Part shown: in pieces, positions 1,303-37,600 of the stretch | How positions within the stretch are numbered: the stretch's first letter is position 1 | How the letters are laid out: each line of letters starts with the position of its first letter | Source: Candidatus Poribacteria bacterium | GTDB lineage: Bacteria; Poribacteria; WGA-4E; WGA-3G | Assembly: GCA_965215265.1 (NCBI GenBank) | Contig: OZ244048.1 | Span: 3,552,001-3,616,000, forward strand | Reading direction: 5' to 3' | Length of the DNA stretch: 64,000 bases | Program-made: the position numbers and the translations under genes | Notes under the pieces: generated by a model | Databases searched by the model: none | Told to the model about the DNA's origin: nothing | The model's input: the letters and a program-made list of their open reading frames with translations, nothing else

Positions 1303-2418
1303 ACCTAAGTTGCCAGCTATAAAAAAGTTGTAAATCCATGGGTTCTCCTTTATAGTGTTTATATCACAATAAAACCAAAGGAGCCCCCATGGACTTAACT
1401 ATTGTAGCAGTTTATACCCTTTGTGACGCTCCTTTACTCTCACTCGGACATCAAGAACATCTACAAACACAGATGACAGATGCAGAAGTGATGACTACCG
1501 CCCTTGTCGCCGCCAGAGACTTCGCAGGCACTCATCAAAATGCATGTTCTGCTTTGAAGACGCTCGGCTATATTCCAAATAGGCACCGAGCGTCTCGATA
1601 CAATCGTAGACTTCATCGAATCACACCGCTGTTTGAGGCACTCTTTGAACATCTCGCTCAAACCGCCAAAACGGAGAACGACAATAACATCTATTCGGTG
1701 GATACCTTTGCTGTCGCAGTCTGTGATAATATCCGTTTTTGTATATCTCCGTAAAGAATTGTCCCTGCTTGCAGGGTGAATTCTTGTCCGTCAACGCTTA
1801 TGATTTTGTTAAATCGTGTGTAAATTTCGTAGGAGATTCCCTTAGGCATAGCATAAAGCAAGCGGCTCTGGCGAGATTTTCACAGGGTTGTAAATAGCAG
1901 CAGCCTTTATTGGGCTGAAATATACGACATTTCTCGGTTTCGCAGGTATCAAGGCGAAGCCTACCTAGGGAAGATTGCCAGCAAACGGCGGCATTTCTAT
2001 GGGCTCAAAGTCCATCTGATGGTGTCTGAATCAGGGGCTATCGTTGAAGCTTTCTTCACACCGGGGAGCAGTAACGATGTGCTTGGCATGCGGTGTTATC
2101 GTTTTTACCTGCCTGCGGGTTCCGTGATGGACACCGATAAAGCATATTGCAACTATGCCATTGAAGATGCCCTGGGGGATATAGAGATTATGTTCAAACC
2201 GTTACGGAAGAAGAATGCCAAACGGCAGTATCCGCCGCCTGAAGTCTATCTACACCAGTCTTACAGAAAACGCGTTGAAGTGACAAAGAGTCTTGTTGAA
2301 AAACTCTTACCGAAGTCTATCCACGCGGTGGCGGCCCACGGATTTGAACTGAAACTTCTTTTATTTCTCATCGCCATAAATATAAAAATGCGATTTAAAG
2401 ATTCGTGGCAATCTAGGT
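1303..2418 (+). mobile_element. IS982-family insertion sequence, inactivated
   Basis: Imperfect terminal IRs ACCTAAGTTGCCA (1303) and TGGCAATCTAGGT (2418) flank an IS982-type DDE transposase. Confidence 0.85.
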
Positions 2419-3033: not shown

Positions 3034-3618
3034 ATGGAACCTGAAACTTTGACAACGAATTCAGACACTCACTTACTTGAACGCATCCAAAAAGGGGACG
3101 ATACCGCCCTCGTAGCACTCATTGAAAGGTATAAACCTTTGATGATGACTATCGTGCGCGGTGAAGTCCCGGCTTATGCGGTAGAGGATGTGTATTTAGA
3201 TGCGCGTGCGGCGATGGTGGTTCGGTTTCGCAGGAATCCCGACGGCATCCGCACCGTGGACAAGTGGGTGAAGCAGGTGACGCGGAGCAAATGTCTCGAG
3301 TTCGGGCGGCAGCTTGCCAAAGAACAGGATGTGCGTGCTATTGCCGAAGACCTCTATAAAGCCGCAGAGGAGCGAGAGTTGCACCGGCATCTGTCTCGGG
3401 ACGTGCCTGATGAAGAAGAGGCGATGGCGGTTATCAAGGCACTAGGTTCCAAGTCTGTAGAAGTAGCCGTATTGCGTGCGGCGGGTTACACGTTGTCGGA
3501 GATAGGCAAACGGCTGAGAATTCCGAAGGACACGGCGAAGTCACGCTGGTGGAAGATTCGTGAGCGTGTTCATGAACATTTCGGATTGCCGTTTCCACCG
3601 AAAAACGAGAAGTCCTAA
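3034..3618 (+). CDS. ECF-type RNA polymerase sigma factor
   Basis: LLERIQKGDDTALVALIERY (region 2) and GYTLSEIGKRLRIPKDTAKSR (region 4 HTH). Confidence 0.8.
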   Translation: MEPETLTTNSDTHLLERIQKGDDTALVALIERYKPLMMTIVRGEVPAYAVEDVYLDARAAMVVRFRRNPDGIRTVDKWVKQVTRSKCLEFGRQLAKEQDVRAIAEDLYKAAEERELHRHLSRDVPDEEEAMAVIKALGSKSVEVAVLRAAGYTLSEIGKRLRIPKDTAKSRWWKIRERVHEHFGLPFPPKNEKS

Positions 3619-5065: not shown

Positions 5066-5113
5066 AAAAGTATACCTCTAAACATTTTCTTTAATGTTTA
5101 GAGGTATACTTTT
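5066..5113. terminator. Perfect 21-bp inverted repeat, likely intrinsic terminator
   Basis: AAAAGTATACCTCTAAACATT-ttcttt-AATGTTTAGAGGTATACTTTT followed by a T-tract. Confidence 0.6.
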
Positions 5114-5161: not shown

Positions 5162-5208
5162 CAGGTGACGCGGAGCAAGTGTCTCGATTTCGGGCGGCAT
5201 CTTGCCAA
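5162..5208 (+). repeat. 47-bp copy of ECF sigma segment 3274-3320
   Basis: 44/47 identical; all three differences fall at third codon positions. Confidence 0.8.
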
Positions 5209-5409
5209 TGGCACCATCGGCATAAACAACGCAGCGTAGGTACATGTCTTAATTATCGGGCTAGTGGTACTAGGCAACATCGTCTTCTTCATTCAGAAAG
5301 GACGACAGAAAAAGCAAAAACCTTGAATCGGCAGGAACGGATTGGGGCTTTACGGGGATGAGGCTTTCTGCGGTGATATTAACATCGTGTGCCTCTTTTC
5401 TTTTTAATA

Positions 5410-5418
5410 TGCTATAAT
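5410..5418 (+). promoter_or_regulatory. Extended -10 promoter element
   Basis: TGCTATAAT about 60 bp upstream of ATG 5480. Confidence 0.45.
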
Positions 5419-5479
5419 TGCTATGTTTAATAAGATAGCAAAATAGTGTTTTTAAATTATAGCAGAATGGGGGTTTGAC

Positions 5480-6202
5480 ATGGCTCGCTTATCCATGATT
5501 GGAAATCATATTGAAAGTTTATTGTCTTTGTGTAAGAAGACACAAAAAATTGCGACGTTGTCGCGTGCGACGGGAGTCTCTGTGCATACGCTTTATCGCT
5601 GGCGTGATCGTGGGAAGTTAGAGGTATCAGGTCTTTATAGGGCTTTTTATGATGCGTTGACTTCGCCAGTAGGTGGCAGTAGCGGTGATGGCAAACTTGT
5701 AGAGCCGACGACGGCGAAAATTACATTAGAGCGAATAGATGCAATACTTGAAAAAGTCAAAATTGGCATGAGCTGGGATGCTATCGCACATGCTGTTGGG
5801 GTTTCGGCGGCGACGTTGTATCGGTGGATGCAGCGTGAGGGAACCGAACAGGCGGGGCTCTATCGCGAATTTTATGATAGGCTTGCTGAGTTGAAAATGA
5901 GTACAGAGTTATCTTTGATTGATTCGGTTATGAATAATGCTGTAGAAAGACAGGAGACTTTTACGAACAAGACGGTTACTAAAACAAAAGAGGGGAGGGT
6001 TGAATTTACATCAACCTCGAAGCCACCTAATGCTGAAATGGCTTTGAAAATGATGGAACGTATTAATCCTGTATTCTGGGCACCGATTGTGCCTCATCGT
6101 GTTGATGTTGATTGGGAGAAGACTGTGCGCGAGCAAGGTGGGGATCCGCGTGAGATTGAGGAGTTTGTTCGGTCGGAATTGGAGAAGGAGGGTTTAATTT
6201 AG
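5480..6202 (+). CDS. Tandem-HTH protein resembling phage terminase small subunits
   Basis: Two repeats, GVSVHTLYRWRDRG..GLYRAFYDAL and GVSAATLYRWMQRE..GLYREFYDRL. MALKMMERINPVFW resembles the AAAWxLERxxPxxW motif of TerS-like proteins (recalled, not searched). Confidence 0.65.
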   Translation: MARLSMIGNHIESLLSLCKKTQKIATLSRATGVSVHTLYRWRDRGKLEVSGLYRAFYDALTSPVGGSSGDGKLVEPTTAKITLERIDAILEKVKIGMSWDAIAHAVGVSAATLYRWMQREGTEQAGLYREFYDRLAELKMSTELSLIDSVMNNAVERQETFTNKTVTKTKEGRVEFTSTSKPPNAEMALKMMERINPVFWAPIVPHRVDVDWEKTVREQGGDPREIEEFVRSELEKEGLI

Positions 6203-6449
6203 AGTCAATGCATCGAACGGCTCAGACGAGATTTACACACGAGCTATCAAAACATAGATGTTGATGGTACGGAGATATAGAAATAAGCGTTGATTGGGAG
6301 AAAACGGTGCGGGATCAGGGTGGGGATCCTGCGGAGATTGAGGAGCTTGCGAGGAAGGTGATTGAGGAATCATAACCTAGTGAGGCTCAGACGAGATTTA
6401 CACACGAGTACCCACGACATAAGCGTTGATGGTACGGAGATATACGAGA
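6188..6449 (+). repeat. Two R1 copies separated by a diverged duplicate of the HTH gene 3' end
   Basis: GACGAGATTTACACACGAG...GTTGATGGTACGGAGATATA occurs twice. 6289-6375 encodes VDWEKTVRDQGGDPAEIEELARKVIEES*. Confidence 0.9.
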
Positions 6450-6453
6450 AGTC

Positions 6454-9400
6454 TTACTTAAGAACGACTATCTTCCCAACCTTTTGTTTTCGCTTATCGT
6501 CTTTACGTGCTGTGAACTTATAGAGATATACACCGTTTGCGAGCGGTTCTCCATCTGCATCTATGCCATCGTAGTGGAATTCGTTGTAAGAGACAGATGC
6601 ATCCAAGGTATCAATGGTAGAGATGAGGCGTCCGGTGAGGGTATAAATCTTGAGGCTGACCTGGTCAGCCCTTTCGGTGAGGTAATAGGCGAAATCAGTG
6701 CCGCGCCCGGGTCGGAAAGGATTGGGGAAATTCGCTATATTTTTAATTGCGAACTCGCCGGCTACGTTAGCTGTGTGCTCTGTGGAGGCGGGATTTCCGT
6801 TTGCATCTTGTGCTTGCAACCGGATGCGATATTCGCCTGCTTCTAAAACAGGTGTATAGGTTACGAGCAACACCCGGCTATTGACAGGTGACGAAGCGAT
6901 AACATACTCATCTTGTGGTACGCGCGCGCCGTTCTTCGTGATGAGAAGGTTTTCAGTCCGTGGATCTATTCCATTCGCATCCTCAATCCTCGCAGAGATA
7001 GTGGGGCTTTTGGAGACATAATCCCCATCAATAAAACCTTGATGTTCAACGGTCATCTCAAGTATGGGGGGGCGGGAATCTGCGTGGGATAACAGGGCAA
7101 ACGTCCCTGGCAGTGTAACTTGAGTTGAGATCTTCTCATCCGTGAGGGTTTCATTGCCGATGCGAATCCAATTGCGTGTCTCGGCATGGAGCATATAGAT
7201 GTGCGCGTCTGAATTTGCAGGTTTTATGAAGGAGGCTGTTGCCTTCAATTCGGCTGGCTCATTCACCGAAAAATGATAGGCTACGGAAGCATCTGCGACT
7301 GTTTCCCCGGAAGCATTTATCTCCACGATGGGAAAAATATCCGGCTGATTTGCAATGGATAATTCTCTTTGTTCAAACGTCATGACGGTGCTACTTTGAA
7401 GGCTTTCAGGCGAAACAGAGAGGTGCAAGGCCCCATCTACGCTTGTGATTTCGCGGTGTTTGGGTGTGAGCAGGATGCGATTGTTTTTAAACTGTCGTGC
7501 TGCGATGTTATTAAGTTCCCTGCGTTCAATAATATTCCCTTTTGGATGTGCTTGAGACGGCAGGTCAATAACAACCGTGACGAGGTAGTTTCCGAGTGGC
7601 GGCTGCCAGGGTACACTGACGATAACATGAGTCTCTGGTAGTACTTCCGCGAGCATCTGAACCTCGCCAATTTGAGTAGCATTTTGAAGTGCTTCAAGAG
7701 TCGGCGTGGTGGTTCCGGTATCTGCTTGTGTAGGCATTTGAAAAAAGTGCACCGATACATCTCGTGCGGGCATAGTGGCTCGGTTGCGGATTTGCGCCGA
7801 AAGTGTAAAGGGAGGTTCTATGTTCCAAGCAATCGTTTCCTGCAAAATCGTTAAGTCAACGTCAATCAAACCGAATTCATAAGTTTCTATTTCTGTTTGA
7901 AAGGTTTTCCCGCCGCGCACTTCGACTTCCAAGTAGTAGTCAATCAATTCTCTTGCCGGATAACCAGGGATCGGCTGCTCGCTTCTATAGGTTGAACCCG
8001 TGTGTTGGACAACCGGGATTGTTTCAAATTCAAAACCATCTAAGCTCCAAAAGAGTGTCATTGCTTCAATATCATTCTTGTTTCGCACCTCTGTGTAAAG
8101 ATGTACAGGTTGTTCTGGTTCAACGGGGTAAGGGACAATTCGGACGTTATCAAGGTATCGTTGTAGTGCATTATAATTTGCGTAACCGATGGCATCTTCC
8201 TCAGTGTTCCATGCGTAGGCTTGTATGTTTCCGTTATCAAATTGGCTATTCGCTGGCAGTAGGATTTCCGTGGTGAATTGTCCATTTACGACAGGGACAG
8301 TTTCTCGTTCTGGGGGTGGAGGTTCTATTTCTGTATCTCTTGAAGACTGGAGCGATCTTGGGAAGACAACAATTTCTGCGTTTCCGGTAAAATTGTGGTT
8401 GGCGAGTGCGCCGGAAACCATCATCGAGGTTTGATCTATATCTGCTGTTAGCTTCATCTGTGTATGCGGCAATCTGAGCTGAGTTGCGGGATCCCCGAAG
8501 AGTGTGAAAACTTCGGCGAGGTCAAAATAACTCGGTGCGTTAATAAGAAATAGCGTTTTGGCTTCGGCGAGGATGGCCCCAATATGCGATGTCTTATCCT
8601 TAAAGATAACGTCAAAAATAGCGCGATTGAGAATATAGTCTCCATCTAGCAATCCGATGCTGGTTCCGCCAATGACTGCAATAGCACCTCCATTTTGTGA
8701 GCGTAGCAATTCCTCAGCAAGGCAGCTGCTGTTACCATCAAAGTGAGCTGTGTAACAAGTCATACTGATAACAAAGGGGAGTTGCGCGATATTGGTTAGG
8801 TTCTGTTCAGGATCTTCCAGATCTAGCATGCGAGAAGATGACCAGACACCGCCGGCGCCATGGCCGATATAGTTAACAATGCTGACACCGTCATTGAATG
8901 CATCAATCACTTGTCTACCAACAAACAGATTGTTCTGCTCGCTAGCCGTTTCGGTTTGTGTAATTGGGGCATAGATGGGCGTAATTTCATATTTGGAACG
9001 GATCTCATTCTGTTTAAGCAGCCCCTCGGTTTGGCTGTGAAACCGCCAATCTGTGCCGGCGAGCATGAGGAGTCGCTTCTGCCAGGGGCCGATCTCGGCG
9101 TTGGTTTCATAGTTAATGGCATGCTCAACGAATGTCCGCACGTCAACGCGATTGGTTGCAGGTATCCTTCCAATGAGCATATCAGGAAAACTATCGTCGC
9201 CTCTGAAGGTTACGAATTGATGGTCGCTGGCACTTGAGCCGTATCCTGGAATTTGCACTTGTATCGTGGGTACAAAATTAGGGTGTGTTTTGGGACTGTT
9301 ATGCGTATCTCCTACCAGAAACACGTAGGTTGGCGCAGGGGGCTGCCAATTTTGGTAGGCATATTTAAGGAATTCTCTAACGGCGTACGGATTGACAATA

Positions 9401-11481
9401 CCGTAGTTGAACTCATCGTAAATGTTTTGAACATCAACAACTTTAGTGCGCATGCCGTTTTGTGCCCGGAAGTTAGCGAGCGCTTGTACGTCTGGAATAA
9501 AAAGCGTATCTGTAATGATGATGTAATCTGCGCCGTTGTGTGTACTGCGTAAGTTGGCGGGTCTATCTTTTTGTATTTCCGGTTTTAGAAATTGTTCCCG
9601 CGTCAGCGCGATGTATTGAATTGTTGTATTCTGTGGATGCGTGTTACCGGTTTGTGTGGTATCAAAAGCGAGTTTGTAGGTGCCTGCTGCTTCCTCATTG
9701 TCCACAATAGGATAGCCGATATAGCGGGTCCCATCAACACCGTAAATCTCAATGTTGGGAGTAGAAAAGTTTTTCAACCACTTTCTGGTGTTAGTCTGTT
9801 CCGGAAAAGGGGTGATTGAAAATGGGAGGACATCCGCTTTTGCCTCAAACGTTCGCCAGTATTCGACTTCAAACCAGTTAAACATGACTCTATCCAAGGT
9901 GCCATCTGAAGCGTCTCGGAGACTGACACGAAGCGTATTTGTTCCTTCTTGCAAAAAGGAGAGTGGGATTTCCTGATTCTCAAATTGGAATTCAATTTGT
10001 CCGTTCCATAGTGGGACTTCAAACCTGCGTTTGTCATTTAACCATAAGTTGACTTGATGTGGAGTGTTAGATCTTCCGTAGAACTGCACGCGTAGTGTTG
10101 CAAATAACCCGGTGCGTGCAACGCCGGGGAGCTCGAAAGGTAACGTTTTTGAACGTGTCGGTGGTACGGATATTGCCGGTAGAGGTGTCCAGAACCAACT
10201 GTCGCTTGGAAGTTCGGGTAGCTCTGTTAGGGTAAAGAAACGTTCCTGTAGTCCTGCACCAATTTGTAAGTACTCACTTCCTTCTGCGAGGTTTGCTTCC
10301 TCAAACCTTGCAAAATGCTGATCTTTCTCAAAATGCGCGCGTGTGAGAAAGCGTTGATAGAAGGGTGGAGGTGCCCCTGTTTCTGTTAACGCATCTCCTA
10401 TATCTGCTGGGGCTGTTTTCGTCCCCATTCGGATTCCGGGGGTGCCACTCCAAGTAAGCCAATAGATGTTTTCATCAGAAAAGGGATCGAAGTAAGTGGT
10501 TTCTCCGCGGTTCCGCTGGCCATAGAAAACAATCTCATCGTCTGGGTCAAAACTTCCATCGCTTTCGCCTCGCACAAAAATAGGTATCTGTCTACCTTTG
10601 TTTGACAGTTTAAACGTAGCTGGTACGATAGAGTCAATATCTTCTACGATGGCTTTTGCCAGGTCTCGTCCGGTGATGTGGTACATTCCATCTTGGCTGA
10701 TAACTATTTTATAGTGCGGGGTGACGGGTAAAACGGTTGTAGGGGCACCAGGTGCCGGTAGGGAAGCAGCACGCCACTGTTTTGCTGTGTGTGGATTGAT
10801 AAGCATATTCTCTAACATTGCGTCGTAAACAGGCGATTCGGGGCGTAGAAACCGGTGCATCGCAGGTGGCGCGCTTCCTGAGCGGTGAAACTGCACTTCA
10901 ACGATGAGCCGATGATAGAACTTAACCTCTCCAGTTACAGGGTTATACTGTACTGGGTTCAGTTGAATTGGGAGGACTCTATTCTCTCGAATCCAGCCTG
11001 CTGCTTTGATTTCAACGGCTCTGTCAGGAAAAAAACGGTTCTTAGAAGTTGTACGTGTTCTATGTTCTAGCGCAGCTACAGTGCGTATGCGAAAGTCACT
11101 TTGAACGATGCGGAGTGTAAAATCCGCGTCAGGTGGTACCCCGATTAACGCTGATTTTACGGGCATCGGCGGCATGCCCGGCTGGGTTGTGAAATCGGCA
11201 CCGGGGAACGAAAATGGAGAAATCGGAGATGGCGGGGAAAAGGTATTCTTCTCTGTCCTCGAGGACAGAGAAGGAAAACCGAACCCCGCTAATTGTGCAT
11301 CCGGTAGTGCAGCAACATTAAAATCAGTTTCCGGGATAATGAGTTGAATTTTTATGCTGTGCACGGTCGCACTGAGCAGTTCAATCTCTCCGCTTGACCG
11401 TGCAGTTTTTTTTCCATGTACACCGAACGTGGCTATGCCTAAGAGTAATAGAATCGTCGTGAATAAAAAGGTCTGTTTCAT
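6454..11481 (-). CDS. Peptidase C25 (gingipain-like) with propeptide and C-terminal FlgD-Ig-like sorting domain
   Basis: ADYIII, YVFLVGD, DMLIGRIP, VNYIGHG, SMTCYTAHFD, LFGDP, and C-terminal NFPNPF...LANGVYLYK. Confidence 0.9.
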   Translation of the reverse strand: MKQTFLFTTILLLLGIATFGVHGKKTARSSGEIELLSATVHSIKIQLIIPETDFNVAALPDAQLAGFGFPSLSSRTEKNTFSPPSPISPFSFPGADFTTQPGMPPMPVKSALIGVPPDADFTLRIVQSDFRIRTVAALEHRTRTTSKNRFFPDRAVEIKAAGWIRENRVLPIQLNPVQYNPVTGEVKFYHRLIVEVQFHRSGSAPPAMHRFLRPESPVYDAMLENMLINPHTAKQWRAASLPAPGAPTTVLPVTPHYKIVISQDGMYHITGRDLAKAIVEDIDSIVPATFKLSNKGRQIPIFVRGESDGSFDPDDEIVFYGQRNRGETTYFDPFSDENIYWLTWSGTPGIRMGTKTAPADIGDALTETGAPPPFYQRFLTRAHFEKDQHFARFEEANLAEGSEYLQIGAGLQERFFTLTELPELPSDSWFWTPLPAISVPPTRSKTLPFELPGVARTGLFATLRVQFYGRSNTPHQVNLWLNDKRRFEVPLWNGQIEFQFENQEIPLSFLQEGTNTLRVSLRDASDGTLDRVMFNWFEVEYWRTFEAKADVLPFSITPFPEQTNTRKWLKNFSTPNIEIYGVDGTRYIGYPIVDNEEAAGTYKLAFDTTQTGNTHPQNTTIQYIALTREQFLKPEIQKDRPANLRSTHNGADYIIITDTLFIPDVQALANFRAQNGMRTKVVDVQNIYDEFNYGIVNPYAVREFLKYAYQNWQPPAPTYVFLVGDTHNSPKTHPNFVPTIQVQIPGYGSSASDHQFVTFRGDDSFPDMLIGRIPATNRVDVRTFVEHAINYETNAEIGPWQKRLLMLAGTDWRFHSQTEGLLKQNEIRSKYEITPIYAPITQTETASEQNNLFVGRQVIDAFNDGVSIVNYIGHGAGGVWSSSRMLDLEDPEQNLTNIAQLPFVISMTCYTAHFDGNSSCLAEELLRSQNGGAIAVIGGTSIGLLDGDYILNRAIFDVIFKDKTSHIGAILAEAKTLFLINAPSYFDLAEVFTLFGDPATQLRLPHTQMKLTADIDQTSMMVSGALANHNFTGNAEIVVFPRSLQSSRDTEIEPPPPERETVPVVNGQFTTEILLPANSQFDNGNIQAYAWNTEEDAIGYANYNALQRYLDNVRIVPYPVEPEQPVHLYTEVRNKNDIEAMTLFWSLDGFEFETIPVVQHTGSTYRSEQPIPGYPARELIDYYLEVEVRGGKTFQTEIETYEFGLIDVDLTILQETIAWNIEPPFTLSAQIRNRATMPARDVSVHFFQMPTQADTGTTTPTLEALQNATQIGEVQMLAEVLPETHVIVSVPWQPPLGNYLVTVVIDLPSQAHPKGNIIERRELNNIAARQFKNNRILLTPKHREITSVDGALHLSVSPESLQSSTVMTFEQRELSIANQPDIFPIVEINASGETVADASVAYHFSVNEPAELKATASFIKPANSDAHIYMLHAETRNWIRIGNETLTDEKISTQVTLPGTFALLSHADSRPPILEMTVEHQGFIDGDYVSKSPTISARIEDANGIDPRTENLLITKNGARVPQDEYVIASSPVNSRVLLVTYTPVLEAGEYRIRLQAQDANGNPASTEHTANVAGEFAIKNIANFPNPFRPGRGTDFAYYLTERADQVSLKIYTLTGRLISTIDTLDASVSYNEFHYDGIDADGEPLANGVYLYKFTARKDDKRKQKVGKIVVLK

Positions 11482-11483
11482 AC

Positions 11484-11766
11484 TTTTATATATTTCCGTA
11501 CCATAAAGGGTTATGTTGTGTTAAATCCGATGTAGATCTCGTCGGAGGTTCCTGATGTAATGAATCTAAACCTAGAAGAGCTCAGACGAGTGGCAGGATA
11601 GGTAAGTTTACGAAACGAAATTGAGGGTGGTGCCCGCCCACCCGAATCCTTCTTTGTTTCTCCTGAAACCTGAGGTCAATACCTTACCCGTCAACCCAAT
11701 GGGTGGCGAGTAAAAGGTAGTGATAGCGTGTCCTTCAGGACTCGCGATACTACCTATCTCGCCACT
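11484..11766. repeat. R1 copy fused to an R2 composite
   Basis: TATATTTCCGTACCAT...GTAGATCTCGTCGG, then CTCAGACGAG joined to TGGCAGGATAGGTA, CCCGCCCACCCGAATCC, CCCAATGGGTGGCGAGTAAAAGGTAG and CTACCTATCTCGCCAC. Confidence 0.85.
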
Positions 11767-12370
11767 AATTTCGGGCGAGGTGGTAAACTTCAATCTCCCG
11801 GAGTTGGGCGATTGCAGGCTGTACGACTCGATAGTGCGGGTAGTACTGGCCGGCAAGTGTTGTGCGCCGGTCTAATACTTTATCGCCGGGCTCGGCAATA
11901 ATTTTGTTAACGATGATATCATCCACAGTGCGAGTGACGGTTACCCGAAGCATCTGGGTTTGAAAGTTCAATCGATCAAAGACGAACGTCGGTTGGGCAC
12001 TTTCTCCATCGAGATTGCGTCGCTGGATGATGGAATCAAAGGTTTCCCATTCACCGGTCTCCTCATTCAAATAGTCCATCTCGAACCGGAACAAGTTTCC
12101 GTTGTGGATGATAATTTTTCGTACTGGCTTGATTTCAGCAAATCGAATGATAAAGTTCCGATCATTTCGAGCTGGGAGAGTCGCTAAAGTTTCAACATTA
12201 CCGTCGTTTAAGCCGGGGTGGTTCGCTTCTGTGCCGTAATTTGTGAGGGCCATGTTTTCGCTGTACCGGGTTGATAAAACCTCAACGATTCTACAAGCGT
12301 TGAGTTGTAAGCAGATAATTAGAAGCCACAAAAGTATCACGGACTGGTATGCACTGCTACGGGGTACCAT
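11765..12370 (-). CDS. Putative lipoprotein with a discoidin-like domain
   Basis: Start re-set to ATG 12370 (GAGGAG RBS). Hydrophobic leader with LNAC, ENMAL..LNDGN, and C-terminal LREIEVY. Confidence 0.65.
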   Translation of the reverse strand: MVPRSSAYQSVILLWLLIICLQLNACRIVEVLSTRYSENMALTNYGTEANHPGLNDGNVETLATLPARNDRNFIIRFAEIKPVRKIIIHNGNLFRFEMDYLNEETGEWETFDSIIQRRNLDGESAQPTFVFDRLNFQTQMLRVTVTRTVDDIIVNKIIAEPGDKVLDRRTTLAGQYYPHYRVVQPAIAQLREIEVYHLARN

Positions 12371-12384
12371 TTTTTTCTCCTCTA

Positions 12385-12640
12385 TTTTCGTATACTGGAG
12401 CCCCATCAACGTCTCTGTTTTGATAACTCGTGTGTAAATCTCGCCAGAGCCATTCTAGGTTATGATTCTTCAATAACTTTTTTATTTTCGTATACTGGAG
12501 CCCCATCAACGTCTCTGTTTTGATAACTCGTGTGTAAATCTCGCCTTTTTCGTATATCTCCGTACCATCAACGCTTAGGTATTGACAGCTCGTGTGTAAA
12601 TCTCGTCGGAGATTCCTTAGGTTATGATTCTTCAATAACT
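12385..12640 (-). repeat. Three head-to-tail R1 copies
   Basis: 12383-12445 is identical to 12483-12545. Third copy from 12546. Tails CTAGGTTATGATTCTTCAATAAC. Confidence 0.9.
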
Positions 12641-12717
12641 TTTCTATTTTTAGTCACGGTCGGGTTGGTGTGAATGTTCCATCGATTCATCGTGTTAGAG
12701 ACTTTAAACAGATTACG

Positions 12718-12797
12718 TTTTTCTGTATCTCTCCGTAAAGAAGTTCTCCCTGCAAGTGGCAGGATAGGTATGGCTCCCACCCACCCAAATCCTTGAG
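12718..12797. repeat. R1 end joined to an R2 fragment
   Basis: GTATCTCTCCGTA joined to AAGAAGTTCTCCCTGCAAGTGGCAGGATAGGTA...CCCACCCACCCAAATCC. Confidence 0.75.
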
Positions 12798-13070
12798 TTA
12801 GCCTGCAACATCAAACCGGTCTACGATACCCATCACAAGTTCACGGATAGGGGCATTCTCAACCCCGAAGACTTCTTGTGCAACGCCGGGGCCTGCTCCA
12901 ACAATTACCGTGTCACCTTCACCGGCACCAACGTAATCAACAGCAATCGTTGGCGTACGGACTACCTCGGATTTTAGGCTTAGTGGTTGGATGAGCAGCA
13001 GTGTGCGATTTTGATACGCAGAATGCTTAATAACTGAAACAACTTTGCCAATGACTTTTGCTAGGTACAT
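12798..13070 (-). CDS. eutN: EutN/CcmL microcompartment vertex protein
   Basis: MYLAKVIGKVVSVIKH...AVDYVGAGEGDTV...MGIVD. Confidence 0.9.
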   Translation of the reverse strand: MYLAKVIGKVVSVIKHSAYQNRTLLLIQPLSLKSEVVRTPTIAVDYVGAGEGDTVIVGAGPGVAQEVFGVENAPIRELVMGIVDRFDVAG

Positions 13071-13110
13071 GTTTAGAATTTAGTTAATCGGATTGGACAG
13101 CATTTCTTCG

Positions 13111-13197
13111 TTTCTGTATATCTCCGTACCATCATCACTTATGTCACGATGTCTTATATGTAAATCTCGTCAGAGCCATTTGATGTATTGACTCTAA
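13111..13197 (-). repeat. R1 copy
   Basis: GTATATCTCCGTACCATCA...TGTAAATCTCGTCAGAGCC...GACTCTAA. Confidence 0.85.
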
Positions 13198-13236
13198 ACA
13201 TCATCCGTTGGTTGAAGGTGGTATTGGTTCAGTCTC

Positions 13237-13515
13237 CTATGGTGTATCATGCAAGGAGATAGAATCTACAATGCCAACAATTGCGACATCTACCGGCATC
13301 CGTTTACCAGGTAAAACCCCTGCAGCATCACCGCCGGTGACTATGTAGACTGTTTCGCCGATTCCTGCATCTTGTAAGGTATCCACTGCAACAATTGGTG
13401 TCGAAATGGGGTTGCGTTTTTGGTCCAAAGGTTGCACGAGGAGGAGACGGGTCCCCTCTAAGCTAGGATGTTTTCGGGTTGCAATGACGGTGCCGATGAC
13501 TTTTGCTATATCCAT
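13237..13515 (-). CDS. eutN: EutN/CcmL microcompartment vertex protein
   Basis: AKVIGTVIATRKHPSLEG...AVDTLQDAGIGE...VDVAIVGIVD. Confidence 0.9.
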   Translation of the reverse strand: MDIAKVIGTVIATRKHPSLEGTRLLLVQPLDQKRNPISTPIVAVDTLQDAGIGETVYIVTGGDAAGVLPGKRMPVDVAIVGIVDSISLHDTP

Positions 13516-13580
13516 TAGTGTTATCTTCCAATGATATAATTCATTTTTTATCTGCTTTGCTTCAGTCTATCTGGAGAAAA

Positions 13581-13724
13581 TTTGTATATCTCCGTACCAT
13601 CACGCTTTATGCTTTGTTAATGACAGTGTAAATCTCGTCTTTTTGTATATCTCCGTACCATCAACGTCTGTGTTTTGATGAGCCGTGTGTAAATCCCGTC
13701 GGAGATATCTTAGGTATAGCATAA
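13581..13724 (-). repeat. Two head-to-tail R1 copies
   Basis: Junction AAATCTCGTC then TTTTTGTATATCTCCG at 13639/13640. Confidence 0.9.
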
Positions 13725-13751
13725 AAATGTATCTGGGATAGGCGATAGCGA

Positions 13752-15194
13752 TTAGGTGAGTTCATATTCAATCAATTTTGTATGGAGCGTATTTCGGTTA
13801 ATGCCGAGTAGTTTTGCGGCCTTGCTCTGATTTTTTTTCGTATGTTCAAGTACAATTTTGAAGAGTGGTTTCTCAAAAATGGCGCGAATTTCAGCATAAA
13901 GTTCGCCATCTTCTGTTTCACGTTCTAGGTAGCGTTCAACTTGTGCGTAGAGAAGGGCATAAACCTGTTCGTCAAAATCGGCATCCTGCATGAAGGTACT
14001 GAGCTGTTCTGCCGTATCCCTTTGTGAGCTGCGTCCTACATGAGTGAAATGTTCGGGGAGTAACATCTGCCCGGAGCACATAACGAGTGAACGTTTGATG
14101 GCATTTTCTAGCTCGCGTACGTTGCCCGGCCACTCATAAACAGTGAGCTGCTCCATAGCGGCTGTTGAGATTCCGATGTGTGGTAATTTGTATTCTTCAA
14201 CAAACCTGCTGGTAAAAAGATCTACTAATTCGGGTATATCTTCTTTCCGTTCTCGGAGTGGTGGAATGACGATAGGAACAACATTCAAGCGATAATAGAG
14301 ATCTTCTCGAAATTCTTTCTGTTCGACTGCTGCTTTAAGGTGCCGGTTGGTTGCAGCAATAATCCGTACATTGACAGTGCGCAGTTCGTTTGAACCAACG
14401 GGCTCAACCTCTCGTTCTTGAAGAACACGTAAGAGTTTCATCTGTACTTCAGCAGGAAGTTCGCCGATTTCATCAAGAAAAATTGTGCCTCCATCTGCTT
14501 GTTCAAATTTCCCTGTCCGCGCTGTCCGTGCATCCGTATAAGCCCCTTTTACATGTCCAAAGAGAGCACTTTCAATGAGGGTTGGTGGGATAGCCCCACA
14601 ATCAACAATGACAAAGGGATTGTCGGCGCGCGGGCTATTGCGGTGAATCAGTTGCGACACCAATTCCTTGCCTGTTCCGCTTTCGCCAAGAATGAGCACA
14701 GTCTCGTCACTCACAGCGGCTCTACCTATCAGTTGGTAAACTGCCTGCATCGCGCTGCTCTGTCCGACTATCTTGCCTTGCCGCTCGATTTCAACAGGGA
14801 GCTGCGAAGTTTGTGCGTGCTTAGTTTGGTTTGAAGCCGATGCAGCACGTCCTACTAAATCCAGCAGTTGCTTTGTATCGACGGGTTTGGTAAGATATCC
14901 ATAAGCACGTTGCTTTGCTGCATCTATCGCGGTTTGCGTAGTGCCGTGGGCAGTGACGATAATAATTGAGGCACTCTTATTGTACTTCTGAATCTCCGTG
15001 ATTAATTCTAGTCCGTTCGCATCGCCCAAAAAGATGTCAAGTAGAATCACATCTGCATCCACTTTTTGAACAACGGCGAGTGTCTCTTTTCCATTTCGGG
15101 CTTTGACTGTATGGTAACCTGCCTTCTCAAGGACGGCAGCAAAGACGCGGCGGAGACTCTCATCGTCATCAGCAATAAGCACTAAGTTTTCCAT
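13752..15194 (-). CDS. Sigma-54-dependent response regulator (NtrC/AtoC family)
   Basis: REC (LIADDD..LLDIFL), GESGTGKE, GAYTDA, FLDEIGE, WPGNVRELEN and Fis HTH. Start re-set to ATG 15194 because the upstream in-frame extension is repeat-derived. Confidence 0.9.
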   Translation of the reverse strand: MENLVLIADDDESLRRVFAAVLEKAGYHTVKARNGKETLAVVQKVDADVILLDIFLGDANGLELITEIQKYNKSASIIIVTAHGTTQTAIDAAKQRAYGYLTKPVDTKQLLDLVGRAASASNQTKHAQTSQLPVEIERQGKIVGQSSAMQAVYQLIGRAAVSDETVLILGESGTGKELVSQLIHRNSPRADNPFVIVDCGAIPPTLIESALFGHVKGAYTDARTARTGKFEQADGGTIFLDEIGELPAEVQMKLLRVLQEREVEPVGSNELRTVNVRIIAATNRHLKAAVEQKEFREDLYYRLNVVPIVIPPLRERKEDIPELVDLFTSRFVEEYKLPHIGISTAAMEQLTVYEWPGNVRELENAIKRSLVMCSGQMLLPEHFTHVGRSSQRDTAEQLSTFMQDADFDEQVYALLYAQVERYLERETEDGELYAEIRAIFEKPLFKIVLEHTKKNQSKAAKLLGINRNTLHTKLIEYELT

Positions 15195-15352
15195 TTTTTT
15201 GTATATCTCCGTACCATCAACGTCTAGGTAATGATAGCTCGTGTGTAAATCTCGTTTTTTTGTATATTTCAGCCCGATAACGCCTGATGTATTGTCAATG
15301 ACTGTGTAAATCTCGTCGGAACCGTTCGATGTATTGTCTCTAAGATGCAACT
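15195..15352 (-). repeat. Two head-to-tail R1 copies between the kinase and regulator genes
   Basis: GTATATCTCCGTACC variant followed by GTATATTTCAGCCCG variant. Confidence 0.9.
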
Positions 15353-15357
15353 TCATC

Positions 15358-16971
15358 TTACCTGCCACCCATTGGGCGGGCTTCAATTCCGGGCAGTGTA
15401 ATAATAAATGCTGCGCCAACTGCCAGCCCGGCTTTTACGTCAATGCTACCGTTGTGTTCCTCAAGAATTTTTCGACTGATATAGAGCCCAAGTCCAGTGC
15501 CTTTCTGTTTTGTTGTATAGAAAGGATGGAAGAGCTGTGGCACCTCATCGGGCAAAATCCCGGGTCCCGTGTCTTGAACGCTAATGTATACTAATTTTTC
15601 CGCCTTTCGGTACTCTGTTCGAAGCGTCAGCGTTCCCCCCGCTTCCATAGCTTCTATCGCATTGTAGAATAGATTCAGGAGAACCTGCGTTATTCCATCA
15701 GGGTTAACGTTCACCTTCGGATAGGGCGACTGATATTTAGTCACTACCTGAATGGCGTACCGTTGCAATTCTGTTTCACAAATTGAGAGGCTGTCGGTAA
15801 GCAATTCGTGTATATCACAAGGTTTCGCGAATTCCATCGCTGGTTTACTGAAAGCAAGCAGCTGCTCAATAAACCGGTTGAGCCGGTCAACCTCTTTGAT
15901 AATAATTTCGGCATATTCGTCTGATTCGGATTCCGTTGTCTGCTGGAGGAGCTGCGTTCCCAAGCGTATACTGCTGAGTGGGTTACGAACCTCGTGAGCA
16001 ATTGTCCGGACTAACCTTCCGAGCGTTGCCAGACGTTCAGATTCAACAAGCGCTTCAATAGTCTGCTGGATTTTGACGCGCTGTGCGATGATGGATGCAA
16101 CAATCGTCAGTAGCTGCTGGTCATCTTCCGCTGAAAATTCGTCCGATGCCTTATCAATAGTCAAGGTTCCCACAACTTGTTCTTCGACGATAACAGGTAT
16201 ACACCAGAACGCGATTGCATCCTTTCCTCTTTTTTTTATTTCAGAGTTCCCATTTTCTGATATTTTCGTGATAACACTTGAATCTTCATCAGAAATTTCA
16301 GATCCGAGTTCGAAGAGTTTAACATAACTTCTTGGGAGTCGGGCGTGTGGGACTCCAACGGCTTTACCTGTTGCCAGTACACGTTTCTGAATATCCCCAA
16401 TCAGCCCATCAGTTCCACGTTTGAGTTCCGCCGGGGTTAGTCCGAGAACTACCTCAGCCGATGTAACAACTTTTTTCTCGTTGTAGAGATGCAAAGCTCC
16501 TCGGTAGATACCGAGGCGATTGGAGAGAATTTCAATAATCCGCTGAAAGAGTTCAGCGAGCTCAAGATTAGCATTCGCGGCTTGACTCACTTCAAAAAGC
16601 GTCGACAAATCTCTTACGCGCTTTTCTAAATCTGCATTGATATTATTTATCTGTTTCAACTGTTCTCCGTGAACGCCGCGCTCGGTTCGTAGTTGTCGGA
16701 TAATATGAATGACTCCGAGGACAAGAAACGGATAAAAAAAGGCAACGACAATGCTTTGTATTTGGATTGGCTGGTGAAAAGCATAGATTAAATTGGCTGC
16801 TGCTGTCAGCGTGAGCAAGAATTTCTGTCCCCATTCTCGATCGTATATCACAGCGAGCATCATCACGCCGTAGTAACTGTGGCTCAGTATTTGATAGTAC
16901 TGTGGCACGTGAAGTAGATATACCAGCAGATTTGAACCAAGCACTAAAAGTGCCAGCAGAAATGTTATCAT
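15358..16971 (-). CDS. Membrane GAF-domain sensor histidine kinase
   Basis: TM helices, GAF, AHEVRNPL, NLFYNAIEAM, DTGPG and GTGLGL. Confidence 0.9.
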   Translation of the reverse strand: MITFLLALLVLGSNLLVYLLHVPQYYQILSHSYYGVMMLAVIYDREWGQKFLLTLTAAANLIYAFHQPIQIQSIVVAFFYPFLVLGVIHIIRQLRTERGVHGEQLKQINNINADLEKRVRDLSTLFEVSQAANANLELAELFQRIIEILSNRLGIYRGALHLYNEKKVVTSAEVVLGLTPAELKRGTDGLIGDIQKRVLATGKAVGVPHARLPRSYVKLFELGSEISDEDSSVITKISENGNSEIKKRGKDAIAFWCIPVIVEEQVVGTLTIDKASDEFSAEDDQQLLTIVASIIAQRVKIQQTIEALVESERLATLGRLVRTIAHEVRNPLSSIRLGTQLLQQTTESESDEYAEIIIKEVDRLNRFIEQLLAFSKPAMEFAKPCDIHELLTDSLSICETELQRYAIQVVTKYQSPYPKVNVNPDGITQVLLNLFYNAIEAMEAGGTLTLRTEYRKAEKLVYISVQDTGPGILPDEVPQLFHPFYTTKQKGTGLGLYISRKILEEHNGSIDVKAGLAVGAAFIITLPGIEARPMGGR

Positions 16972-19591: not shown

Positions 19592-19834
19592 TTTTTCTGT
19601 ATATCTCCGTACCGTCAACACCCAGTCGGTTGCGAGATCCCCGCCATCTATAGATAAAAGGTAGTGCAAGCGTGTCCTGAAGGACACGCGATGGGGATTC
19701 ATCCCCGCAAGCGGGGAGTTGCGAGATAGGTATTCAGTGTCTCTCCTGAAAGGAGAGACAAAGAATTCCTTTTACTCGCAACCCATTGGGAACTTCCCCT
19801 ACCTATCCTGCCACTCGTCAGGGCCTTCCTAGGT
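19592..19834. repeat. R1 copy interrupted by an R2 element that itself holds a nested R2 (19719-19790)
   Basis: R1 head 19592-19620 and tail TCGTCAGGGCCTTCCTAGGTT. The outer R2 is the inverse of 20692-20780. Confidence 0.85.
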
Positions 19835-19952
19835 TCAGTTCCTGATAGTTGTCTCAAAAAATTTAAATTTCCAAAGTTTTTGATGTCTTCGGTTGATAGA
19901 TGCACAATTGAGGTACCTAGATCTAATGTCCCTCGTACCAACGTGCACCGTT

Positions 19953-20624
19953 TTAATAGAATCCATGTTGTGCTAAGAACGCCATATCAAGCTGTCCGGA
20001 TTGATTTCGGTTTTTCTTCTGGCTGGAGAGTTCTGTTCTTGCTAACAACAGCGCCTCGACGTAGCGTGCAATCACATCTACTTCAAGATTGACACGTGCC
20101 CCTTCTCTTTTTGTCCCCAAAGTTGTAACCGACTTTGTGTGTGGAATTAAAGCGACTTCAAAGGTGTCGGCGAATACGTTCGCTATTGTTAAACTCACGC
20201 CGTCAACGGAAACAGAACCTTTATAGGCTATGTAAGGCTTAACATCTGCGTTCATTGTCACCTGCATAAGAGAGGAATCGCCTTCATCCTTCCATCCACT
20301 AATTACAACGACTGCATCAACATGCCCGAGGACGAGATGGCCTCCTAACCGCTGGCTCAACTGTAGAGAACGTTCTAAGTTAGCCCGGTCGCGAGGTTTT
20401 CGGTCTCCCAATGTTGTCCGACGTAGCGTTTCGGCAGAAATATCGGAGATGAATCCATCTGCCAACAATGCACGAATAGTAAGGCAGGCACCATCAACGG
20501 CAATGCTATCCCCTACTTTCGCGTCTGCGAGTACTTCAGTTGCCCTAATGTGAAGGGTCGCGCTTTGGGATGTACGTTTGATGTTAACAATAGTACCAAT
20601 CTCTTCAACGATTCCGGTAAACAT
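19953..20624 (-). CDS. ribE: Riboflavin synthase alpha chain
   Basis: MFTGIVEE, GDSIAVDGACLT, GGHLVLGHVD and VNLEVD. Confidence 0.97.
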   Translation of the reverse strand: MFTGIVEEIGTIVNIKRTSQSATLHIRATEVLADAKVGDSIAVDGACLTIRALLADGFISDISAETLRRTTLGDRKPRDRANLERSLQLSQRLGGHLVLGHVDAVVVISGWKDEGDSSLMQVTMNADVKPYIAYKGSVSVDGVSLTIANVFADTFEVALIPHTKSVTTLGTKREGARVNLEVDVIARYVEALLLARTELSSQKKNRNQSGQLDMAFLAQHGFY

Positions 20625-20691
20625 TTTTGTCTCTGGCTTAGCTCATGCGGGTTTGGCATAAATAGTTTAGGCACCACTCATTTTGATACAA

Positions 20692-20795
20692 AGTGGCAGG
20701 ATAGGTAGGGGAAGTTCTCCCCGCTTGCGGGGATGAATCCCCATCGCGTGTCCTCGAGGACACGCGATACTACCTTTTACCTGCCACCCACTGGG
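20692..20795. repeat. Complete R2 palindromic element overlapping the ribD stop
   Basis: AGTGGCAGGATAGGTAG...CCCCGCTTGCGGGG...CGCGTGTCCTCGAGGACACGCG...CTACCTTTTACCTGCCACCCACTGGG. Confidence 0.85.
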
Positions 20796-31080: not shown

Positions 31081-31145
31081 GTTCCCCAGAACTATGGTAG
31101 TCGGCGAGTGAGCACGTCAGAGCTCACCCACGGAAAATATGTCTA

Positions 31146-31230
31146 TTCGTATATCTCCGTACCATCAACCTCTATGTTTTGATAGCTCGTGTATAAATCT
31201 CGTCTGAGCCTCTTGATGTTTTGTCTCTAA
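31146..31230 (-). repeat. R1 copy
   Basis: GTATATCTCCGTACCATCAACC...ATAAATCTCGTCTGAGCC...TCTCTAA. Confidence 0.9.
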
Positions 31231-31258
31231 ATAGAGAGAAGAGAGAGATGAACAGATT

Positions 31259-32055
31259 ATGGCACATTTTTCTGATATTAAAGTCCTTACGTTTGACTTA
31301 TTCGGAACGATTTTAGACCTCGGTAGTAGCCTTACACCGTTTATTGAAGAATCATTTTTTTGTATATTTCAGCCCGATAACGCCTGATGTATTGTCAATG
31401 ACTGTATAAATCTCGTCTGAGCTTCTTGATGTTTTGACTCTAAATTAAACCCGCCTTAACTGTGCGCGGGGCCAACGTATCGCCGGGTACATTTTGGGAA
31501 CAGTGGCGGTACCGTCAGCGGATTGAGCAATATCAGGACACGATTACGATGCTTGGGCATAGCGGTTATTTAGAAACAGTGCGTCGTGCCTTGCACTATA
31601 CACTGAGAGGCAACGGTGTTGATGCCTCCCCCGAGACTGTAGAAGAATTTATGCAAGGTTGGCATCACCTTTCTCCATTTCAAGAAGTTTTAGTAGCCCT
31701 CAAACGTTTGCAAATTCGCTATCAGTTAGTCGTGCTCTCCAACGGGGATGCGGATTTTTTAGCTTACCTCGTTAGCGAAAGGGTTGATTGGCAATTTGAT
31801 CAGGTAATTTCGGTTACATCCTTCGGCGCGTTTAAACCGCATCCGGCTGTCTACCGCGGTGCTGCTGGAAAACTTGGTGTTGATGTCAACGCGTGCATGA
31901 TGGTATCGGCAAATTCGTTTGACATCATGGGGGCGCGGGCGTGTGGGTACAAAGGTGCATTTGTAAACCGCTATCGCCTACCCTATGAGGATACCCTTTA
32001 TCAACCTGATTTAACAGTAAACGATTTTACGGAATTGGCAGCAGCATTGCTGTAA
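31259..32055 (+). pseudogene. Haloacid dehalogenase type II interrupted by a 101-bp R1 insertion
   Basis: MAHFSDIKVLTFDLFGTILD...FIEES, insert 31355-31455, then LTVRGANV...LSNG..FKPHP..SANSFD. The insert shifts the frame and contains stops. Confidence 0.85.
31355..31455 (-). repeat. R1 copy inside the HAD gene
   Basis: Ends GACTCTAAATTAAACCC, the reverse complement of the last codons of the 5480-6202 gene (GGGTTTAATTTAGAGTC). Confidence 0.9.
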
Positions 32056-36790: not shown

Positions 36791-36853
36791 AGTACCGGTC
36801 TCCAGTTAGCAAGATATTGTGTGCTGTGATTATTGCAAATATTATGCCAATAG

Positions 36854-37600
36854 TTTCTTGTATATTTAAGCCCCATCAACGCTTAGGTATTGACAGCCCG
36901 TGTGTAAATCTCGTCGGAGCCTCTTGATGTATAGTAAAACAGCACTGCTATCTTTCTATCTTATCAGGAAGCACATGATTGTCCAGAATTTGAACATTTC
37001 ATGCTAATAATCTGTAAACCGAGGGTGGACGTGGGGCGAATAACGGGATGGTGGGAGTTGATCTCTATAAGTAGGGAAAGATATTTATCAAATCAGTTTT
37101 TTTTGTATATCTCCGTACCATCAACGTCTAGGTAATGATAGCTCGTGTATAAATCTCATCGGAGACTCTTGATGTTTTGTCTCTAAGATGCAACTTTTTT
37201 GTATATCTCCGTACCATCATCTGCAGTTGCCCTATATTGTGCAAAGACATCAGGATTGCCCGTTTTTGTGCAAATTATTTTTGATGTTTTTTTCGTATAT
37301 CTCCGTACCATCACTGCTTATGCATTGTTTAATCGTGTGTAAATCTCGTCGGAGACTCCTTAGGTATAGTCTTTTAAAATCAAAACCTAAAATCGCTCAG
37401 AAGTTCGGGCGGAGTACACTCCGCCCGTATGTGAGAAAGGTTTTCGTATATCTCCGTACCGTCAACGTCTATGCTTTTGAGGGCTCGTGTGTAAATCTCG
37501 TCGGAGATATCTTAGGCATAGCGTAGCATAAAGCGGCTCTGGCGAGATTTGTATAGGCCTTATCAAAGCAGCAACCTTTATGGTACTGCAGTAGACGAAA
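36854..37600. repeat. Cluster of six R1 copies, the last two forming an inverted pair
   Basis: Copies at about 36854, 37097, 37195, 37287 and 37441, plus the inverted arm 37530-37600. GC hairpin CGGGCGGAGTACACTCCGCCCG at 37406-37427. Confidence 0.9.

Follow-up and report, generated by a model that had tools for sequence, protein, structure and literature searches.

Pieces of a TerS-like gene lineage joined to an interspersed repeat family in a Poribacteria genome

The window analysed here, a stretch of 64,000 nucleotides from a Candidatus Poribacteria genome (G000:C1:3552001-3616000; the genome is a single contig of 4.83 Mb with 48% G+C), carries a gene for a 240-residue protein resembling phage small terminase subunits (TerS), and the stop codon of this gene lies in a unit of a short repeat, named R1. 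Variable-length pieces of the 3′ part of the gene, the tail, recur across the genome, each joined to R1, and each new copy is deposited as one piece, intact at an A-run end and truncated at the other. We tentatively propose, with a probability of roughly 0.4, that R1 is the non-autonomous partner of an element carrying the TerS-like gene and is copied inwards from the A-run end. Small interspersed repeats fill many bacterial genomes, and to our knowledge few families have a known origin or copying route. Here, sequence connects a 700-unit family with the 3′ end of a single protein-gene lineage, and this link provides a concrete candidate for the parent element of R1 and for a DNA-binding protein and makes the copying mechanism testable. 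If end-anchored copying dependent on the TerS-like protein were true, it would be a new mobility mechanism and a new fate of a phage packaging protein; otherwise, the locus remains an example of R1 remodelling gene ends, with stop codons supplied, HAD and IS982 genes split and spacers replaced.

Gene tails and their junction with R1

At the TerS-like locus, the inner end of R1 unit 1 reads TTTAGAG, and its TAG is the stop codon of gene 5480-6202; the boxes GAGATTTAC (6229-6237) and GAGATATAG (6272-6280) and a purine-rich end follow. Next to it lies a relic of a second, diverged TerS-like gene, which comprises the last 29 codons, ends in EELARKVIEES-stop and has R1 on each side. Its first part, 6289-6349, is 84% identical to 6107-6167 over 61 nt and continues in frame to the stop at 6373-6375, and the inner end of R1 unit 2 overlaps the last codons and the TAA stop of this relic. 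The first-pass annotation had described the same arrangement, and all of its sequence statements at the locus (open reading frame (ORF), R1 at the stop codon, second tail, second R1) were reproduced.

A tblastn search of the own genome with the 240-residue protein yielded one full-length copy and many copies of the last 20-50 residues, which fall into three types: type A, that of gene 5480-6202, ends in ELEKEGLI; type B, the commonest, ends in ELARKVIEES; and type C has an acidic end resembling that of protein P0002 (199 residues), one of the closest relatives together with P0003 and with P0020, a tail ORF of 46 residues. All 18 credible tblastn tail matches, the gene's own tail counted, are followed by R1 in the same register. 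By blastn with three references, 46 R1 units (gene counted) carry a tail of at least 18 nt, with lengths running continuously from 18 to about 150 nt, and 21 units besides the gene, the second tail at the TerS-like locus counted, carry at least 30 nt. No credible tail piece without R1 was found in the own genome by tblastn or blastn, and no credible piece of residues 1-139 was found elsewhere in it by tblastn. The single mid-gene relic, at genome 246899-247127, holds residues about 142-154 and the last codons, with copies of a second palindromic repeat, R2, between them. Therefore, the earlier claim of a specific link between tail and R1 with one-sided truncation held at the genome scale: about 45 tail pieces, none without R1, and no credible N-terminal piece. 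Likewise confirmed was the match of two copies near 12385 and 12546 to the second tail, since the R1 copies at 12382-12473 and 12545-12635 both carry ATTGAAGAATCATAACCTA; in the array that includes them, two units start with type B tail over 22-24 nt (AAAAGTTATTGAAGAATCATAACC).

Two controls bear on the specificity of the junction. The 472 R1 units whose inner end is complete yielded, as families of collinear inner flanks, inverted R1 (298 units), R2 (15) and the TerS tail (12), plus one local five-unit array and eight families of two units each, three of which were inspected and proved to be repeat-derived DNA or a short type C tail; the TerS tail was thus the sole gene tail collinear with the R1 inner end among the inner-flank families inspected. 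In addition, an ORF stop codon is present within about 10 nt at just 13 of the 399 R1 inner ends. Because of these inner-flank families and stop-codon counts, the gene-R1 junction can be regarded as specific to the TerS-like gene lineage. The C-terminal tail motif is shared with relatives of 160-200 residues, including distant ones without R1, and therefore the tail is native to the protein family; the overlap of gene and R1 covers the stop codon and the last few codons only. Hence the tails are not repeat sequence that secondarily replaced the C-terminus of the gene, an outcome that would have spoken against the link. The type A and type B ends can be aligned both to one another and to the R1 inner end, which argues for one old junction.

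Among the tails, the proportion of differing synonymous sites (pS) is 0.43-0.72 and the ratio of the nonsynonymous to the synonymous proportion (pN/pS) 0.03-0.28, or 0.12 summed over seven type B tails. Most pieces belong to the two other tail types, and they differ from gene 5480-6202 at 66-72% of synonymous sites with a pN/pS of 0.2-0.3. Because the differences are mostly synonymous, the relics come from several long-diverged genes under protein-level selection, and gene 5480-6202 is the last intact survivor of its lineage and not their source; the earlier proposal of this locus as the source of the repeat family is accordingly not supported. The same tail type is found joined to different R1 cores, so R1 units are mosaic. 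The longest tail relic, in locus L014 (G000:C1:1269815-1272958), measures about 147 nt with an ATG-started 46-codon frame, and stands at the left edge of a 1.24-kb block that is missing from the syntenic site of the same-genus genome G001; the block also holds a 351-residue ORF, presumably an M23 peptidase.

Comparison with G001 shows R1 units as insertions. The tail-bearing unit in the HAD hydrolase gene ends in the last six codons of gene 5480-6202, as had been reported. This HAD gene is uninterrupted in G001, the junctions of the inserted unit differ by at most a few nucleotides, and by Pfam the remaining ORF 31462-32055 matches no more of the HAD domain than its C-terminal two thirds. The unit has no second arm, its flanks are unique DNA, and the G001 site holds no earlier R1; a single inner-truncated unit can therefore insert as such. 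Since copies are complete at the A-run end only, dozens of R1 units keep a tail of 18 to about 150 nt and none keeps the front of the gene. The flank at 31458-31470 reads ACTGTGCGCG, which equals 10 nt of the TerS tail (6121-6130) in the orientation opposite to the unit; this match could be chance, microhomology or a small inverted piece.

A head-to-head R1 pair splits an IS982-family transposase gene, whose halves match profile positions 1-87 and 91-242 and form one 281-residue frame upon removal of the 195 nt. Positions 10800-16400 are syntenic with G001, and the R1 arrays there are extra DNA in G000; the units within 11484..15345 fill gaps that are short or different in G001, and in one gap R1 DNA begins close to a stop codon and extends up to the following start codon. 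The uvrC locus has a 72-nt tail and three units between the conserved uvrC stop and the next gene, and the G001 spacer is unrelated. At the 3006692 locus, 31 nt separate the A-run from a possible duplication; these 31 nt occur nowhere else in the genome and thus give no hint of 3′ transduction.

The TerS-like protein and the R1 family

The 240-residue protein matches HTH_23 in two stretches (E 2.2e-10), and Pfam yields helix-turn-helix (HTH) families only, the Sf6_terminase match (17.1 bits) lying under the 27-bit cut-off. Its HTH modules (residues about 9-60 and 84-136) are an internal duplication, with 42% identity over 52 residues (E 4e-13). The phage profile phrog_4102, annotated as terminase small subunit, matches the protein at E 1.4e-11, and 24 of 29 aligned family members match phrog_4102 and 23 of 29 phrog_309. 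An exhaustive HMMER search found 226 proteins at E<=1e-3. The typical relative has 160-200 residues and one HTH, and aligns to query residues 79-235; in the C-terminal stretch common to the relatives, W212 is nearly invariant and G220 invariant. Among 176 genomes of the phylum, the family profile found members in 18, the own genome among them, and BLAST with the protein itself found 2 of 61 genomes, namely the own genome and one weak match. In G083 a Terminase_3 gene starts before the homologue has ended, and in G115 the homologue's stop codon is where another ORF begins. Searches for related loci found no relative of the protein in genome contigs, nor any of P0002 in genome contigs or of P0026 in viral contigs, and tblastn against 50,697 phage records gave one unannotated match of 28.6% identity.

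An AlphaFold model of the protein (pLDDT 80) gave a weak best Foldseek match to an SPP1-like TerS (E 0.04) and, in VIA-align, middling scores to 2ao9 (Z 6.1) and to Sf6 TerS (Z 5.7 over 117 residues); a PDB sequence search with the family profile gave nothing below E 0.004. The profile match and the N-terminal HTH of a phage small terminase are thus present, and a neighbouring gene for the large subunit (TerL) is lacking. Because three TerL Pfam families (Terminase_6N, TerL_ATPase and Terminase_3) give no match in the whole genome, gene 5480-6202 is an orphan genome-wide. Its description in the first-pass annotation as an orphan TerS-like gene with tandem HTH modules was borne out by the phrog_4102 match, the duplicated HTH and the absence of these TerL families, and the sequence identifies it as a TerS-like, putatively DNA-binding gene of phage type.

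R1 comprises 713 units genome-wide (nhmmer, E<1e-3, with a profile built from 14 window copies), or 1.27% of the genome, and 21 of them lie in the window. Chance recurrence is excluded by the counts of an R1 25-mer (8 window matches versus 0 expected) and an R1 20-mer (14 versus 0.01). By a crude map of greedy longest ORFs, 557 of the 713 are intergenic. The units form 438 clusters, 263 units standing alone, and adjacent units meet head-to-tail (136 junctions), head-to-head (127) or tail-to-tail (12); in most head-to-head junctions the arms overlap by 6-15 nt, and in head-to-tail arrays each unit ends in TATAC and an A-run. Several core types exist, with a nearest-neighbour identity of 75-100%, and the mean pairwise identity of 65% argues that the family is old. 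The fixed end GGAGATATAC with an A-run, formerly ascribed to all copies, holds for the largest subfamily and is confined to it: of 560 scored ends, 366 have TATAC and 108 TAGAC, followed by a purine run of 2-9, commonest 5-6. GATT just past the A-run is found at 10% versus 3%, probably owing to undetected neighbouring R1 units.

The two related boxes, of the form GAGAT(T/A)TAC and with the sequences GAGATTTAC and GAGATATAG, are both present at the TerS-like locus as noted before, with starts 43 nt and not 44 nt apart. The box GACGAGATTT occurs 382 times in the genome, 342 of them within R1, against about 9 expected, and the second box is found in the largest R1 subfamily only. A BLAST search of 61 genomes with the 89-nt R1 unit had matches in the own genome alone, and G001 is without R1; an exact R1 21-mer had no match in genome contigs and one in a metagenome contig, where the R1 model matches just weakly and in part. 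RNAalifold predicted no shared structure among 200 sampled units for either strand, Rfam at the gathering threshold had no match in the window, and R1 orientation showed no replication-linked pattern against GC skew. R1 is therefore one unit type of a very large, old, mosaic and mostly intergenic repeat family, present in the own genome only among those searched.

A proposed parent element for R1 and rival explanations

We propose that a lineage of phage-derived TerS-like genes, of which 5480-6202 would be the only intact one left, came to have its stop codon inside the R1 inner end. The full-length mobile element would consist of the TerS-like gene and R1, and R1 alone would be its short non-autonomous derivative, as a short interspersed nuclear element (SINE) shares the 3′ end of its long counterpart (LINE). 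Copying would begin at the A-run end and run inwards, the TerS-like protein with its two HTH modules could be the DNA-recognition protein that binds the GAGAT(T/A)TAC boxes, and the catalytic enzyme would be either host-encoded or lost. Such a parent element fits the specific junction, the one-sided truncation, the several source lineages and the single-unit insertion. A bolder form of the proposal, which we hold doubtful, is a new kind of bacterial mobile element whose sole protein is a TerS-like DNA binder and which is copied from its A-rich end inwards, often stopping short. Such an element would depend on a polymerase or nuclease of the host, or else on an enzyme not yet recognised, and would yield 5′-truncated gene relics and a 700-copy short non-autonomous family, a prokaryotic counterpart of LINE and SINE.

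SINE/LINE pairs with a common 3′ end and 5′-truncated, dead-on-arrival LINE copies are eukaryotic. The likeness lies in a short, abundant, non-coding R1 whose terminal stretch of about 90 nt also forms the 3′ end of a coding element, in copies complete at the A-rich 3′ end with variable 5′ truncation (the tails of 18 to about 150 nt), in relics from several source lineages that differ by changes made under purifying selection, and in head-to-tail arrays joined at the A-run. However, R1 lacks a suitable reverse transcriptase (RT) and a consistent target-site duplication, its coding partner is a 240-residue HTH protein and not a polymerase or endonuclease, many units form head-to-head pairs, and the host is bacterial. 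Among bacterial intergenic repeats, clusters of repetitive extragenic palindromes (REP) in bacterial interspersed mosaic elements (BIMEs), pneumococcal BOX elements and mycobacterial interspersed repetitive units (MIRUs) offer a comparison, as they too consist of hundreds of modular units, 60-90 nt long and intergenic, which alternate or follow one another in tandem and in part fill a stop-to-start gap, and R1 is likewise limited to one species among those searched. However, a single R1 unit has no conserved hairpin, there is no RAYT or Y1 transposase, and the R1 inner end is homologous to the 3′ end of a protein gene family and carries pieces of it.

Miniature inverted-repeat transposable elements (MITEs) derived from insertion sequences (IS), such as Correia/NEMIS, resemble R1 in being non-autonomous derivatives that share ends with a coding element, insert in and between genes and form long inverted repeats when paired. 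R1 differs in having no partner IS with a transposase and the same ends, in single units inserting alone, in lacking a regular target-site duplication, and in lacking terminal inverted repeats, as the single unit in the HAD gene illustrates. Finally, a TerS-family HTH protein with repeated short boxes beside its own gene recalls phage TerS with pac/cosB sites, and its standing alone without TerL recalls the orphan TerS/Rpp of satellites such as phage-inducible chromosomal islands (PICIs) and Staphylococcus aureus pathogenicity islands (SaPIs). Here, however, the site is found 713 times across the chromosome, the HTH module is duplicated, and no TerL, capsid, integrase or replication gene lies nearby.

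Several observations weigh against the proposed parent element. The sole RT (RVT_1) of the genome lies about 2.1 Mb from the TerS-like locus, flanked by bAvd and FGE-sulfatase genes, and because of these neighbours belongs to a diversity-generating retroelement (DGR); the conserved columns of R1 include adenines, so no DGR-type adenine mutagenesis is seen. Y1 HUH/RAYT genes (PF01797) gave no match in the genome, with the control positive in 6 genomes, and IS110 (PF01548) and TnpB (PF07282) gave none either; retroposition-like or rolling-circle-like copying, as first suggested, thus finds no enzyme of its kind in these searches. The TerS-like protein belongs to a class that we take to be without any known catalytic role in DNA mobility. 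No consistent target-site duplication was found genome-wide, flank matches barely exceeding a control that paired flanks of different loci, and head-to-head R1 pairs mostly join two unlike core types, which simple end-anchored copying does not predict. The co-occurrence of the TerS-like gene and R1 is known from one genome, and the expectation that homologous genes carry R1 downstream failed for the wider family: distant relatives in other Poribacteria stand beside TerL without R1. Lastly, several outer-flank families, among them an Rpn-like gene at 5 loci and the 3′ end of a methylase-like gene at 6 loci, are duplicated with their R1 junction, so R1 and a neighbouring gene are also duplicated by other routes.

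The Y2 search (PF04986) was uninformative, its control being silent everywhere, and among 20 inverted R1 pairs 150-9000 nt apart none encloses a recurring element that could be a partner IS. DGR involvement with a variable and template repeat pair was rejected, since the differences between 6107-6167 and 6289-6349 involve all bases and are not adenine-specific, and the RT is far off. An integron attC reading was rejected because the single R1 unit has no conserved pairing, and a hairpin-telomere reading because the gene abuts the palindrome centre and not the outer side. In the titles and opening lines of abstracts of the literature searched, nothing relevant linked Poribacteria with MITEs, or small terminases with MITEs or transposons.

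Each of four rival explanations covers some of the observations and founders on the HAD insertion, on the lack of 5′ pieces, or on both. One-sided recombination anchored in R1, by which phage or satellite DNA with an orphan terS-like gene and R1 joined a chromosomal R1 while its other side joined illegitimately, would leave variable tail lengths on R1. It agrees with the fixed R1 register and varying tail extent, with tails from several long-diverged functional genes and with 4-6 nt of microhomology at the 5′ junction of the 3006692 copy compared with G001, and orphan TerS genes are typical of phage satellites. We nevertheless judge it unlikely, because the HAD insertion has unique DNA at both junctions and its G001 site is without R1, the donor's other R1 flank would be expected equally often and no matching family was seen, and no phage or satellite genes are present at the TerS-like locus. 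A coincidence of decay is quite unlikely: R1 would have hit the terS/terL junction of several prophage or satellite terS genes, with deletions and R2 insertions eroding the rest. The relic at 246899-247127, with R2 between its fragments, shows that longer copies do erode, and in relatives terL overlaps the terS stop codon; yet neither terL 5′ pieces on the R1 outer side nor 5′ terS pieces were found, TerL of the three families is absent, the HAD gene received its 105-nt unit by clean insertion, and the type A and B last codons aligning with the R1 inner end point to one old junction and not to three independent hits.

The chance is slight, in our estimate, that a domesticated TerS binds R1 boxes chromosome-wide in a packaging, nucleoid or regulatory role while R1 spreads by an unrelated MITE-type route. 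This would leave the joint travel of gene tails and R1 unexplained, the second box is limited to the largest subfamily, and the missing TerL weakens the pac-like-site alternative of the first-pass annotation. In its favour, the family resembles TerS and has HTH modules, the boxes occur far more often than expected and almost exclusively inside R1, and TerS of many phages binds repeated sites in or near its own gene. Just as improbable are ordinary MITE- or BIME-like repeats that landed beside a multi-copy gene family, the junction then being spread by segmental duplications. The Rpn-like gene and its upstream R1 were indeed duplicated as a unit with 89-95% identity, but the tail copies share no flanks beyond the tail, their truncation points vary continuously, a synonymous divergence of 0.43-0.72 under purifying selection is unlike recent segmental duplication, and few R1 inner ends (the 13 of 399 above) lie near any ORF stop codon.

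Other features of the window and genome

Features of the TerS-like locus and R1 units in the window (positions within the window; G001, same-genus genome).
Feature	Position	Strand	Basis or context
Orphan TerS-like gene, 240 aa	5480..6202	+	ORF call, HTH Pfam matches, phrog_4102
Gene 3′ tail, aa about 190-240	6047..6202	+	tblastn and blastn against own genome
R1 unit 1	6198..6291	+	nhmmer score 85.8, E 4e-24; sequence read directly
Relic of second, diverged TerS-like gene, tail type B	6289..6375	+	84% identity, translation
R1 unit 2	6363..6455	+	nhmmer score 83.2
Head-to-head R1 pair, 195 nt, in IS982-family transposase gene	1736..1930	.	profile halves, frame repair
Further intergenic R1 units	11484-11570, 13109-13199, 13581-13727, 15191-15345 (span 11484..15345)	-	nhmmer, G001 comparison
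Array of three R1 units	12382..12635	-	nhmmer, blastn; missing from syntenic G001 site
R1 unit upstream of HAD gene start	31139..31232	-	nhmmer
Tail and R1 unit, about 105 nt: last 18 nt of type A tail, R1, A7	31352..31457	-	in HAD hydrolase gene 31247-32055 (+)
Cluster of five R1 units, four - and one +, last two head-to-head	36850..37600	-	nhmmer

Upstream of gene 5480-6202 lie an ECF-sigma-like gene and two genes of unknown function, and downstream, on the opposite strand, a C25 peptidase gene, at whose 3′ end (about 6451) synteny with G001 breaks; among the neighbouring genes checked, there is no TerL, capsid, integrase, replication, phage or satellite gene. Part of the ECF-sigma-like gene recurs as a 47-nt copy with 94% identity (5162-5208 and 3274-3320), about 270 nt upstream of the TerS-like gene. 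Also upstream, at 5068-5113, lies a near-perfect palindrome (stem GTATACCTCTAAACATT) between an A-run and a T-run. It includes TTTAGAG and GTATAC, the motifs found at the two ends of R1; it may be just a terminator. In contigs from four sequencing studies the TerS-like gene is unchanged, and the contigs end at R1 and so offer no usable joints. Run X1 holds at 5370-5669, beside an identical contig, one 302-nt contig of lower depth with 41 differences and 4 gaps, which probably represents the diverged allele seen as P0003 (103 residues, 89% identical).

R2 has ends like CCAGTGGGTGGCAGG...CCTGCCACTG and occurs in the window at 11570-11760 and 15345-15390. In three tail-bearing loci (4215255, 1595394 and 246899), it is found within R1, each time between GGCTCC and GACGAG. 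At 15358, a histidine kinase gene that is longer in G001 takes its stop codon from R2.

Elsewhere in the genome, the same junction of an R1 outer end with the 3′ end of a gene ending in ...GEETVVTE, putatively a DNA methyltransferase gene, is found at six loci (223291, 550145, 819493, 1397095, 4115455 and 4830765). A unit of about 1.1 kb, comprising R1, a TTGACT-N17-TATAAT promoter-like site and a gene for about 307 residues, recurs at 89-95% identity at L051 (G000:C1:3745200-3747600) and at genome 2453810, 2773738 and 4280741. Its protein had no match in Pfam and NCBIfam, and a protein atlas grouped it with Rpn-family recombination-promoting nucleases or putative transposases (0.97, a lead only); about 37 genome loci match this Rpn-like protein or its C-terminal part. 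The DGR (L001, G000:C1:1414000-1427000) looks complete, with two FGE-sulfatase-domain genes, bAvd and the RT, and is followed by two YhgA-like (Transposase_31) genes. In the window, 19670-20765 has two 49-nt arms, 96% complementary and 998 nt apart, and is probably another small mobile element with inverted ends, and the minus strand of 32863-36520 has a tandem array of about 24 coding repeats, each about 123-129 nt in period, which overlap an 866-residue ORF (32102-34702) and extend past it.

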